Origin: Escherichia coli
GTDB lineage: Bacteria; Pseudomonadota; Gammaproteobacteria; Enterobacterales; Enterobacteriaceae
NCBI RefSeq assembly: GCF_003018255.1
Contig: NZ_CP027440.1
Length of the DNA stretch: 64,000 nt
Strand: one strand, 5' to 3'
The notes below the pieces were generated by a model. That model saw nothing but the letters and a program-made list of their open reading frames with translations, had not been told where the DNA came from and did no database searches. This document shows positions 4,189 through 54,899 of the stretch, piece by piece (the first letter of the stretch is position 1; each line of letters begins with the position of its first letter). Position numbers and translations under genes: made by a program.

Positions 4189-6450
4189 ATGTCGCAACAT
4201 AACGAAAAGAACCCACATCAGCACCAGTCACCACTACACGATTCCAGCGAAGCGAAACCGGGGATGGACTCACTGGCACCTGAAGACGGATCTCATCGTC
4301 CAGCGGCTGAACCAACACCGCCTGGTGCACAACCTACCGCCCCAGGGAGCCTGAAAGCCCCTGATACGCGTAACGAAAAACTTAATTCTCTGGAAGACGT
4401 ACGCAAAGGCAGTGAAAATTATGCGCTGACCACTAACCAGGGCGTGCGCATCGCCGATGATCAAAACTCACTGCGTGCCGGTAGCCGTGGTCCAACGCTG
4501 CTGGAAGATTTTATTCTGCGCGAGAAAATCACTCACTTTGACCATGAGCGCATCCCGGAACGTATTGTTCATGCACGCGGATCAGCCGCTCACGGTTATT
4601 TCCAGCCATATAAAAGCTTAAGCGATATCACCAAAGCGGATTTCCTCTCAGATCCGAACAAAATCACCCCAGTATTTGTACGTTTCTCTACCGTTCAGGG
4701 TGGTGCTGGCTCTGCCGATACCGTGCGTGATATCCGTGGCTTTGCCACCAAGTTCTATACTGAAGAGGGTATTTTTGACCTCGTTGGCAATAACACGCCA
4801 ATCTTCTTTATCCAGGATGCGCATAAATTCCCCGATTTTGTTCATGCGGTAAAACCAGAACCGCACTGGGCAATTCCACAAGGGCAAAGCGCCCACGATA
4901 CTTTCTGGGATTATGTTTCTCTGCAACCTGAAACTCTGCACAACGTGATGTGGGCGATGTCGGATCGCGGGATCCCGCGCAGTTACCGCACCATGGAAGG
5001 CTTCGGTATTCACACCTTCCGCCTGATTAATGCCGAAGGGAAGGCAACGTTCGTACGTTTCCACTGGAAACCACTGGCAGGTAAAGCCTCACTCGTTTGG
5101 GATGAAGCACAAAAACTAACCGGACGTGACCCGGACTTCCACCGCCGCGAGTTGTGGGAAGCCATCGAAGCAGGCGATTTTCCGGAATACGAACTGGGCT
5201 TCCAGTTGATTCCTGAGGAAGATGAATTTAAGTTCGACTTCGACCTTCTTGATCCAACTAAACTTATCCCGGAAGAACTGGTGCCCGTTCAGCGTGTCGG
5301 CAAAATGGTGCTCAATCGCAATCCGGATAACTTTTTTGCCGAAAACGAACAAGCAGCATTCCATCCAGGTCATATTGTTCCTGGTCTGGACTTCACCAAT
5401 GATCCCCTGTTGCAGGGACGTTTGTTCTCTTATACCGATACACAAATCAGTCGTCTTGGTGGGCCGAATTTCCATGAGATTCCGATTAACCGTCCGACCT
5501 GCCCTTACCATAATTTCCAGCGTGATGGCATGCATCGTATGGGGATCGACACTAACCCGGCGAATTACGAACCGAACTCGATCAACGATAACTGGCCGCG
5601 CGAAACACCGCCGGGGCCGAAACGCGGCGGTTTTGAATCATACCAGGAACGCGTGGAAGGCAATAAAGTTCGCGAGCGCAGCCCATCATTTGGCGAATAT
5701 TATTCTCATCCGCGCCTGTTCTGGTTAAGTCAGACGCCGTTCGAGCAGCGCCATATTGTTGATGGTTTTAGTTTTGAGTTAAGCAAAGTAGTACGCCCGT
5801 ATATTCGTGAGCGCGTTGTTGACCAGTTGGCGCATATCGATCTTAACCTTGCGCAGGCGGTAGCAAAAAATCTCGGTATTGAGCTGACTGACGATCAACT
5901 GAATATTACGCCGCCACCGGACGTCAACGGGCTGAAAAAAGATCCTGCGTTAAGTCTGTACGCCATTCCTGACGGTGATGTGAAAGGTCGCGTGGTAGCG
6001 ATTTTGCTTAATGATGAAGTGAGATCGGCAGACCTTCTGGCCATTCTCAAGGCGCTGAAGGCCAAAGGCGTTCATGCCAAACTGCTCTATTCCCGAATGG
6101 GTGAAGTGACTGCGGATGACGGTACGGTGTTGCCTATAGCCGCTACCTTTGCCGGTGCGCCTTCGCTGACGGTCGATGCGGTCATTGTCCCTTGCGGCAA
6201 TATCGCGGATATCGCTGACAACGGCGATGCCAACTACTATCTGATGGAAGCCTACAAACACCTTAAACCGATTGCGCTGGCAGGAGACGCGCGCAAGTTT
6301 AAAGCAACAATCAAGGTCGCTGACCAGGGTGAAGAAGGGATTGTGGAAGCTGACAGCGCCGACGGTAGTTTTATGGATGAACTGTTAACGCTGATGGCAG
6401 CACACCGCGTGTGGTCACGTATTCCTAAGATTGACAAAATTCCTGCCTGA
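4189..6450 (+). CDS. katE: catalase HPII (large-subunit monofunctional catalase)
   Basis: 753-aa ORF with catalase core sequence; RBS aaggagacgag upstream. Confidence 0.95.
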
Positions 6451-22400: not shown

Positions 22401-22756
22401 GCCAGTGATAAAAGTGCATAAATCGCGGAGGCTAACTGGAAATCAAGGAGTTATAACCAAACATATGCATTTAAAGTGCATATAAAGTGAATACGTTTGC
22501 GATGTGGGTGAATAAAAAGAATAAAAAACGCAATGTTATGCAGAAGTGAAATATAATTCTGAAATTGTGATCATTGACGAAATTTACTGGAAATTACTGC
22601 GCCATTCTGACGCAACGCGCACCAAAAGCGGGCATTTTTTGCGCCATCGTTGACATCATTAACAACCATCGATCAAATCACTTAACAACAGGCGGTAAGC
22701 AAAGCGAAATTCTGCTACCATCCACGCACTCTTTATCTGAATAAATGGCAGCGACT

Positions 22757-43948: not shown

Positions 43949-44833
43949 ATGATTAAGAAAATTTTTGCCCTTCCGGTCATCGAACAAATCTCCCCTGTCC
44001 TCTCCCGTCGTAAACTGGATGAACTGGACCTCATTGTGGTCGATCATCCCCAGGTAAAAGCCTCTTTTGCATTACAGGGCGCACACCTTCTCTCATGGAA
44101 ACCTGCGGGTGAAGAAGAAGTTCTGTGGTTGAGCAATAACACACCGTTCAAAAATGGCGTCGCTATTCGCGGTGGCGTACCGGTTTGCTGGCCGTGGTTT
44201 GGTCCGGCTGCACAACAAGGTCTGCCTGCGCACGGTTTTGCCCGCAACCTGCCGTGGACGCTGAAATCACATCGTGAAGATGCTGATGGCGTAGCGCTGA
44301 CTTTTGAATTGACACAAAGCGAAGAGACGAAAAAATTCTGGCCACACGACTTTAAGCTATTAGCGCATTTCCGCGTGGGTAAAGCCTGTGAAATCGATCT
44401 TGAAGCACACGGCGAATTTGAAACCACCTCTGCCCTGCATACCTACTTTAACGTGGGTGATATCACTAAGGTAAGCGTCAGTGGACTGGGCGATCGCTTC
44501 ATTGATAAAGTGAATGACGCGAAAGAAGATGTACTGACCGACGGTATTCAGACCTTCCCTGACCGTACCGATCGCGTGTATCTGAATCCGCAAGATTGCA
44601 GCGTGATTAATGACGAAGCGCTGAATCGTATTATCGCCGTAGGCCACCAGCATCATCTGAACGTTGTAGGCTGGAACCCAGGACCGGCGCTTTCAGTTAG
44701 CATGGGCGATATGCCGGATGATGGCTACAAGACCTTTGTTTGTGTAGAAACAGCTTACGCCTCAGAAACGCAAAAAGTCACCAAAGAGAAACCTGCACAT
44801 CTGGCGCAATCCATTCGCGTTGCGAAACGTTAA
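43949..44833 (+). CDS. yeaD: glucose-6-phosphate 1-epimerase-like protein YeaD
   Basis: ORF 43928-44833; start at ATG 43949; aldose-1-epimerase fold, 294 aa. Confidence 0.9.
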   Translation: MIKKIFALPVIEQISPVLSRRKLDELDLIVVDHPQVKASFALQGAHLLSWKPAGEEEVLWLSNNTPFKNGVAIRGGVPVCWPWFGPAAQQGLPAHGFARNLPWTLKSHREDADGVALTFELTQSEETKKFWPHDFKLLAHFRVGKACEIDLEAHGEFETTSALHTYFNVGDITKVSVSGLGDRFIDKVNDAKEDVLTDGIQTFPDRTDRVYLNPQDCSVINDEALNRIIAVGHQHHLNVVGWNPGPALSVSMGDMPDDGYKTFVCVETAYASETQKVTKEKPAHLAQSIRVAKR

Positions 44834-44883: not shown

Positions 44884-45782
44884 TCACACCATATCCAGCG
44901 CAGTTTTTCCTTTTGGTGCCGGATATGCCTTATCCAGCATAGCTAATTCCGCTGATGAAAGTTCGACCTCAAGCACAGCCGCATTTTGTTGGACATGGGT
45001 AATCGTGGCCGCTTTTGGAATCGCCATCACACCCTGATGGCTGATTACCCACGCCAACAATACTTGTGCCGCGCTGATATTGTGAGCATGTGCAATTTCG
45101 TTGACTACCGCGTTTTTTAACAGCCCATTGCGCAACCGCCCGGCCTGGGCTAACGGACTGTAAGCCATCACCGGCATCTGCTGTTTCTGGCACCAGGGAA
45201 GTAGATCGTACTCAATCCCTCGTGAACCGAGATGGTAAAGCACCTGATTAGTGGCACACTGATTCCCCCCGGCAGCTGCCAGAGTTCCTGCATATCGGCA
45301 TAATCAAGGTTAGAAACGCCCCAGCGGCGGATTTTTCCCTGGGCGATCAATTTTTCCATCGCTGCGACAGTCTCTTCAAAAGCGAAACTGCCAGACCAGT
45401 GTAATAAGTAGAGATCGAGATAATCAGTATTGAGACGGCGTAAACTGGCTTCGCATGCATTTATCGCTTTTTGCCCGCCAGCATTCCACGGATAGACTTT
45501 AGAGACGAGAAAGACGTTCTCACGCAGGCCGGTTAATGCTTCCCCAACCACCATTTCGGCACCGCCATCGGCATACATTTCGGCGGTATCAATGAGGGTT
45601 AAACCGAGTTCAATGCCCGCGCGTAGTGCAGCAACTTCTGTTTTACGCTGACTGGCATCTTCGCCCATATACCATGTTCCCTGCCCTATGGCTGGCAGTG
45701 AGACATCGCCACTAAATTGAATCATTTTTTGTTGCATTGCTTCCTCCCAGGTATTGCACCACCGTAATGCAAAACAGGGCAT
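44884..45782 (-). pseudogene. yeaE: aldo-keto reductase YeaE disrupted by -1 frameshift in a G6 (plus-strand C6) homopolymer
   Basis: Two consecutive minus-strand ORFs (45168-45782 and 44884-45243) each carry one half of an AKR; reading frame switches at plus-strand CCCCCC 45265-45270; adding one G restores ...QLPGGNQCATNQVLYHLG... Confidence 0.7.
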
Positions 45783-45826
45783 GACGCCCTGTTTTTATGC
45801 ACAAAATGCCCTGGAAAAATGCATTA

Positions 45827-46573
45827 TCAGAATTTGTAGGTGATCCCGGTAGAAATCAGGCCAGTCCAGGATTTATCCACCATTGGGCTGTCAGTAACTT
45901 CATCAGACAGACGGGTGTAGCGCGCGGTACCGTAAACACTCCAGTCACCGAGGAAGTTGTAGCTGGCGCTCAGCTCCAGGTAAGGGCTCCAGCTGTCGTT
46001 CGGGTTATAGCCACGCAGACCGCTGCGAGCGGACTCTTTGCGCGATACGCCATAATAGTATTCGTTCTGGTTTTCGCTGTTCCACTGCACACCAATACCC
46101 GGAGTCACGGTCAGGCCACCGTTGGTGTAACGATACAACCAGGCCATATCCCAGACGATGCCGTTGCTGTTATCCAGGGTATCGCCAGCCAGGGTGGTAC
46201 GCAGGTAACCGTACTGGGTAAAGTGAGCATAAGACAGACCAGCCATCATGGTGCTCTTACGGTCATCCAGGTGACGCATTTGGTGATCGCCACTGTCTTT
46301 AGCTTTGAAGTAAAGCGGCGACCAGTAAGCGGTAATTGAAAGTTTGTCCGTTGCGTCATTCCACAGGTAGTAACCACCACCTAAGCCACGGAACCAGAAG
46401 TTATCGCCGTCATAGTTGATTACCGGTACTGGGTAAACATCGGTATCGTAATCTTTATATGGGTGTTCAACGACACCTACGCCTGCGCCCAGGGAAAATT
46501 TACCTTCAGCGTGCGCTACGCCTGCAGACGTTGCGATAAGCACTCCAAGTGCCAGAAGTTTGAGTTTGGTCAC
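45827..46573 (-). CDS. mipA: MltA-interacting outer membrane scaffold protein MipA
   Basis: 248-aa ORF with signal peptide and C-terminal aromatic residue (ITYKF). Confidence 0.9.
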   Translation of the reverse strand: MTKLKLLALGVLIATSAGVAHAEGKFSLGAGVGVVEHPYKDYDTDVYPVPVINYDGDNFWFRGLGGGYYLWNDATDKLSITAYWSPLYFKAKDSGDHQMRHLDDRKSTMMAGLSYAHFTQYGYLRTTLAGDTLDNSNGIVWDMAWLYRYTNGGLTVTPGIGVQWNSENQNEYYYGVSRKESARSGLRGYNPNDSWSPYLELSASYNFLGDWSVYGTARYTRLSDEVTDSPMVDKSWTGLISTGITYKF

Positions 46574-54452: not shown

Positions 54453-54899
54453 ATGTTTGATGTCACTTTGCTGATCCTGCTCGGGTTAGCTGCGCTGGGC
54501 TTTATCAGTCATAACACCACTGTCGCCGTTTCAATTCTGGTGTTAATCATTGTCCGCGTCACACCGTTAAGCACCTTTTTCCCGTGGATTGAAAAACAGG
54601 GGCTAAGTATCGGGATAATCATTCTGACGATTGGCGTTATGGCTCCCATCGCCAGCGGGACGCTACCGCCCTCAACCCTGATTCACTCGTTTCTGAACTG
54701 GAAATCGCTGGTGGCAATTGCAGTCGGCGTTATTGTCTCCTGGCTGGGGGGGCGCGGCGTGACGTTAATGGGCAGCCAGCCGCAACTGGTCGCCGGGCTG
54801 CTGGTGGGCACTGTTTTGGGCGTGGCGCTGTTTCGCGGCGTACCGGTTGGCCCGCTTATTGCCGCGGGTCTGGTTTCGCTGATTGTGGGGAAACAGTAG
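54453..54899 (+). CDS. yeaL: DUF441 inner membrane protein YeaL
   Basis: 148-aa hydrophobic ORF. Confidence 0.8.

Follow-up and report, generated by a model that had tools for sequence, protein, structure and literature searches.

The yeaE gene in the stretch of Escherichia coli DNA analyzed here (64,000 nucleotides, hereafter the window) is one base shorter than the intact gene, and its coding sequence is divided between two reading frames. Comparison with intact and broken copies of the gene indicates that it was very probably inactivated by a genuine loss of one G from a run of seven (G7 to G6), which would leave a pseudogene of the usual sort. The split is a deterministic feature of the sequence and not a statistical one. 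As in other frameshifted pseudogenes, the length differs from that of the intact gene by a number of bases not divisible by three (854 against 855 nt), a stop follows after 189 codons and the gene continues in a second frame. By these features the locus is an ordinary pseudogene, not novel in kind, and the identical allele has already been annotated as frameshifted by RefSeq in five genomes.

The split yeaE frame and its identity

Around the frameshift site the plus strand reads ...GATT CCCCCC GGCAG..., with TT at 45263-45264 and G at 45271, and the frame breaks at the six C, at exactly the positions given in an earlier note on this DNA (45265-45270; all features are listed in Table 1). That note had also proposed that a 204-aa ORF (45168-45782) and a 119-aa ORF (44884-45243), both on the minus strand, belong to one aldo-keto reductase (AKR) and that insertion of a single G would restore a continuous reading. 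Both ORFs are present, and the one-G repair yields a 284-aa protein that aligns end to end and is identical to YeaE of E. coli IAI39 at 283 of 284 residues (99.6%). The 204-aa ORF begins 15 codons upstream of the real yeaE ATG, a mechanical extension; the start signals of the gene itself (GGAGG, ATG) appear intact. The 119-aa ORF likewise has a mechanical start, a GTG, the original yeaE frame picking up at 45264 (Asn159). The native part of the 189-aa product ends in ...ELWQLPGG (Gly158) and is followed by 31 wrong codons; coordinate arithmetic places the 3' part, which runs to the normal yeaE stop at 44884, in the -1 frame relative to the 5' part.

Table 1. Features of the yeaE locus, in window positions.
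Feature	Position	Strand	Remark
yeaE pseudogene	44884..45737	-	854 nt, compared with 855 nt / 284 aa in the intact gene
Shine-Dalgarno GGAGG	45743..45747	-	5 nt 5' of the yeaE ATG; read from sequence
yeaE ATG start	45737-45735	-	true start, with GGAGG ahead of it
yeaE 5' ORF, truncated 189-aa product	45168..45737	-	158 native residues + 31 out-of-frame + TGA
G6 homopolymer, frameshift site	45265..45270	-	C6 on the plus strand; contracted G7 (probable)
G_GGG_GGA heptamer	45264..45270	-	formal X_XXY_YYZ in the 0 frame; theoretical leak site only
31 out-of-frame codons	45171..45263	-	translation: ISVPLIRCFTISVHEGLSTIYFPGARNSRCR
Premature TGA of the shifted frame	45168..45170	-	overlaps an original-frame ATG (TGATG)
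yeaE 3' remnant, original frame	44884..45264	-	Asn159-Val284 + stop; -1 relative to the 5' ORF
Mechanical ORFs inside the 3' remnant	44884-45243 (119 aa), 44884-45168 (94 aa)	-	ORF list / gene callers

The name yeaE, given in the earlier note, is borne out by the protein identity to IAI39 and by gene order, mipA-yeaE-yeaD-gapA being the arrangement in the window as well as in IAI39 and JNE23-011. An 857-bp region spanning the gene matches annotated yeaE ('methylglyoxal reductase YeaE') in 5,420 of 5,426 complete E. coli genomes. Since NCBIfam has no YeaE-specific model, only models of paralogous AKRs against which scores stayed below the cut-offs, the assignment to YeaE was made by identity to annotated YeaE together with synteny. 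Both fragments have a precomputed match to Pfam PF00248 (Aldo_ket_red). The repaired protein matches AKR profiles in a single stretch (for example residues 13-268 against DkgB), and its residues 2-284 align with the solved aldo-keto reductase structures 6cia and 4wgh; each fragment alone gives a partial AKR profile match, the 3' fragment covering the C-terminal third only. Judged by these similarities, the pseudogene is a member of the YeaE orthologs within the aldo-keto reductase superfamily. Like intact E. coli YeaE (PF00248, e.g., WP_001330282.1 of IAI39) it is located between mipA and yeaD, but in the window the frame breaks after Gly158 and the final 126 residues are not translated in frame.

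The missing base

The same sequence would result from the loss of one A from a tract of six G and three A (A3 to A2 of G6A3) or of one G from a tract of seven G and two A (G7 to G6 of G7A2). The first of these readings, a deletion in the A run, came from alignment with the nearest genome. JNE23-011, the complete genome most similar to the window in the flanking regions (99.1-99.35% identity), carries G6A3 (GGGGGGAAAT), which is also the majority allele (4,981/5,426 genomes), and its pairwise alignment with the window puts the gap in the A/T run. This reading was dropped once haplotype analysis gave an IAI39-like G7A2 gene. The window gene differs from the JNE23-011 G6A3 allele by 18 SNPs and from the IAI39 G7A2 allele by only three (nt 694, 700 and 740), all more than 200 nt downstream of the tract, with nt 1-693 identical save one G; IAI39 is thereby the nearest haplotype in the comparison with yeaE from other E. 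coli that the earlier note had recommended. Two further haplotypes that carry the same broken tract, when repaired to G7A2, each have at least 25 intact twins of the G7A2 type, 100% identical over 855 nt, and slippage is far likelier in a run of seven than in a run of three (PMC8510543). A deletion in the A run is thus highly improbable. Since the tract lies in an IAI39-like G7A2 segment, the deletion would be G7 to G6, in agreement with the earlier note. The position of a homopolymer indel can evidently be mis-assigned when the reference is the majority allele and not the nearest haplotype.

A binned comparison over 5 kb delimited the IAI39-like patch to about -100 to +690 relative to the yeaE ATG (window 45050-45840). 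On either side of it, the flanks are almost identical to those of JNE23-011 and of a clade of the GCA_974490455.1 type. This mosaic suggests a recombination tract of ~0.8-1 kb that would take in the frameshift site together with the 5' part of yeaE.

The earlier note had left it at either a real pseudogene or an assembly artefact. In the latter case the isolate would have G7 and an intact 284-aa yeaE, one G having been dropped in the consensus. An under-called G7 homopolymer would look exactly alike, G/C runs of six to eight bases being classic under-calling sites in long-read, 454 and Ion Torrent data, and the window's exact haplotype was in none of the loci retrieved. A further point in favor of an error is NCTC10537, a genome with a tract frameshift in which yeaD is frameshifted as well and mipA truncated, all within 1.4 kb. 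However, no other homopolymer discrepancy was found in the 64 kb when compared with the nearest complete relative: only three indels separate the window from JNE23-011, and none of the ~20 other runs of 7-8 bases in the window (including a G7 at 54746) is discordant between the two. When the annotated CDSs of the relative were mapped onto the window, 64 of 65 were intact and yeaE was the sole disrupted one. The identical contraction is, moreover, genuine elsewhere, in dozens of independently assembled sequencing runs. A base dropped in the consensus is therefore unlikely, and the evidence leans to a real pseudogene. The window is ~99% identical to E. coli, whose species representative has an intact yeaE, and no IS elements or rearrangements interrupting the 64 kb were found.

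The two other indels relative to JNE23-011 lie outside yeaE. At window position 22462, in the intergenic region between astC and xthA, lies the sole other single-base indel (CCAAA-CAT in the window, CCAAACCAT in JNE23-011). At 44201, within yeaD, an 18-bp in-frame tandem repeat (GGTCCGGCTGCACAACAA) is present in an extra copy in JNE23-011 (L002 24102-24119), giving a YeaD of 300 aa there, compared with the usual 294 aa in the window. Among complete RefSeq E. coli genomes none is nearer to the window than about 99.1-99.6%, and the source lineage is therefore not represented in that set. The pattern in NCTC10537 suggests an error-prone assembly, and counts of homopolymer frameshifts in databases include such artefacts.

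The tract in other E. coli genomes

Tract alleles were counted by allele-specific queries over 5,426 complete E. coli genomes, those for G7A2 and G8A2 being 80/81-bp queries for which only matches of 100% identity were taken (Table 2). The tract is in frame in at least 5,330 of the 5,426 genomes, and the two contraction alleles G5A3 and G6A2 together occur in 28. The earlier note was right that seven G give the intact 284-aa ORF, G7A2 being an in-frame allele; the common allele in E. coli is G6A3. A silent GGA to GGG change extends the G run of yeaE from six to seven. The in-frame G5A4 variant was found in E. coli D8 and 16 other complete genomes, in which yeaE is annotated as intact. Further truncated products in the protein cluster, from draft or short-read assemblies, show the tract in +1 and -2 versions.

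Table 2. Alleles of the yeaE tract in 5,426 complete E. coli genomes.
Allele	Effect	Genomes
G6A3 (GGG GGA AAT)	in frame	4,981
G7A2 (GGG GGG AAT)	in frame, synonymous to G6A3	at least 349 (exact 80-bp allele)
G5A4 (GGG GAA AAT)	in frame, Gly158 to Glu	17
G5A3	frameshift	23
G6A2	frameshift	5
G8A2	frameshift	1
G6A4, G5A2, G4A3	frameshift	0

The five complete genomes with the identical 77-bp G6A2 allele are E686, CLSC36, 98210, UID2309220007 and GMF054. In all five yeaE is marked 'frameshifted' by RefSeq/PGAP and the neighboring genes are intact. As in the window, the shifted frame stops at the same place and encodes a 189-aa product, but the yeaE haplotypes are 9-13 SNPs away within the gene and the flanks are others; these are therefore separate events or transfers and not the window's lineage. 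The five form two haplotype groups and a variant one SNP from one of the groups. In a public assembly collection, truncated 189-aa products were found in 32, 49 and 54 blocks, which stem from many separate sequencing runs, and the exact 189-aa sequence of the window is present in public assemblies. The combination of SNPs in the window (IAI39-like 5' part and three 3' SNPs) was in none of the loci retrieved: among these, carriers of the window's 189-aa product lack its three 3' SNPs, and carriers of its 94-aa product differ from it in both 5' haplotype and frameshift. From this distribution, the G7 to G6 allele of yeaE appears to have arisen on several haplotypes and in several E. coli lineages.

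Relatives that share the 3' yeaE SNPs and the flanks of the window carry other yeaE frameshifts. One of them (L018) has a G5 to G4 contraction in GCCGGGGGAAAAA (position 4828 of the locus, yeaE nt ~397), and three others (L020, L021, L022) have a tract change from G6A3 to G5A3, so that three different inactivating yeaE alleles occur within one background, that of the window and its close relatives. Another locus, L019, has several extra indels, which may stem from noisy data.

On G7, yeaE is frameshifted about three times as often as on G6A3 (5/354 genomes against 23/~5,000), figures that are genome counts and not independent events and are partly confounded by assembly errors. Indel rates climb exponentially as homopolymers lengthen, and G:C runs of 7 bp are hot spots in E. 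coli (PMC8510543); the higher breakage of the G7 version fits this length-dependent rule. On the allele counts, the yeaE tract is a mild indel 'warm spot'. It belongs to the same class as the homopolymer-slippage hot spots of E. coli, as a single-base contraction of a 7-bp G:C run, with no difference in kind. A literature search on yeaE as a pseudogene returned nothing relevant, and this site was not found pointed out. Recurrent, allele-dependent breakage of the tract across E. coli lineages is an only mildly interesting by-product of the analysis.

Phase variation, which the earlier note had mentioned for homopolymer slippage, found no support here. As a contingency switch, the G7 tract would toggle yeaE reversibly as an adaptive strategy. 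G7 is indeed contracted to G6 in five genomes and expanded to G8 in one, and the contraction has arisen on several haplotypes. However, six to seven bases make a short tract for a contingency locus, the complete genomes comprise 349 ON and 6 OFF variants, and YeaE is a redundant reductase of the cytoplasm with no surface or restriction role. The majority G6A3 allele, which interrupts the run, also shows a similarly low level of frameshifts (23/~5,000). Such a switch is extremely improbable. A further proposal, that G7 makes yeaE a recurrent-loss locus in which loss of YeaE is selectively favored in some niches, in place of neutral decay, and the G run acts as a crude on/off switch, could be built on independent G7 to G6 contractions spreading in several lineages and on two further, different frameshifts in the clade closely related to the window; we would rate it as very unlikely.

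Recoding and the consequence of the loss

The break could in principle be compensated during expression, and the earlier note had suggested a +1 ribosomal slip or transcriptional slippage. Frame arithmetic shows that the direction required is -1, not +1. A low-level -1 ribosomal frameshift on G_GGG_GGA (site context: CCGGGGGGAATC), or transcriptional slippage on the G run, would keep YeaE partly functional: the heptamer is correctly framed, slipping by -1 would yield the exact wild-type sequence (GGN...), and the yeaE start signals are intact. Against this, the 113 nt downstream contain no stimulatory structure, their fold being no better than that of shuffled sequences (z = 0.13), and G_GG.G_GG.N heptamers in E. 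coli are at background without stimulators (PMC4066793). In the same study G_GG.G_GG.U slips at 0.018%, and the motifs that exceed 0.1% do not include G_GG.G_GG.A (PMC4066793). Furthermore, the two-frame arrangement is not conserved; with over 99% of orthologs encoded in one ORF, there is no selection for recoding. Programmed -1 sites of the dnaX, IS911 and IS3 type share with yeaE an in-frame X_XXY_YYZ heptamer and a downstream ORF in the -1 frame, but the yeaE heptamer is inefficient, no stimulatory element accompanies it and the split is not conserved, which leaves a formal resemblance only. We would give recoding virtually no chance.

At window 45166-45170 the sequence TGATG leads gene callers to predict an abutting 94-aa C-terminal ORF that starts from the last base of the TGA. 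Termination-reinitiation at this TGATG could make a separate C-terminal piece, and nothing in the sequence suggests that such a piece would be functional. In the absence of a stimulatory signal or conservation, -1 frameshifting, transcriptional slippage and re-initiation at TGATG were all rejected as significant.

The genuine G7 to G6 loss thus stays the preferred reading, and its most likely cause would be replication strand slippage in the G7 run with loss of one G:C pair. Translation would proceed normally to Gly158 and then through the 31 wrong codons to the stop, giving the 189-aa fragment. The 5' fragment contains the motifs LID50, EMY55, VSK80 and LLH113, all of them conserved in the alignment with 6cia; Asp50, Tyr55, Lys80 and His113, which we take from family knowledge to be the catalytic tetrad, would be retained in the 189-aa product. 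The 126 lost C-terminal residues are presumably part of the (alpha/beta)8 barrel, including the region of the conserved IPK motif. The fragment would thus lack much of the cofactor-binding part of the barrel, and because of this C-terminal loss, general knowledge of the AKR family leads us to expect an inactive product and hence, for the window allele, loss of reductase activity. The event appears to be recent, since the rest of the gene, including its promoter-proximal signals and its 3' part, is undecayed.

YeaE is one of nine AKRs in E. coli, five of which, YeaE included, reduce methylglyoxal/glyoxal, and the K-12 enzyme has a reported NADPH-dependent methylglyoxal/glyoxal reductase activity (PMC5297802). 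Most of the detoxification load is borne by the glyoxalases and YqhD (PMC5297802). Since other E. coli enzymes reduce the same aldehydes, the loss of yeaE would plausibly be near neutral and its cost small. A frameshifted yeaE pseudogene is the proper annotation for the locus, which carries little meaning beyond that.
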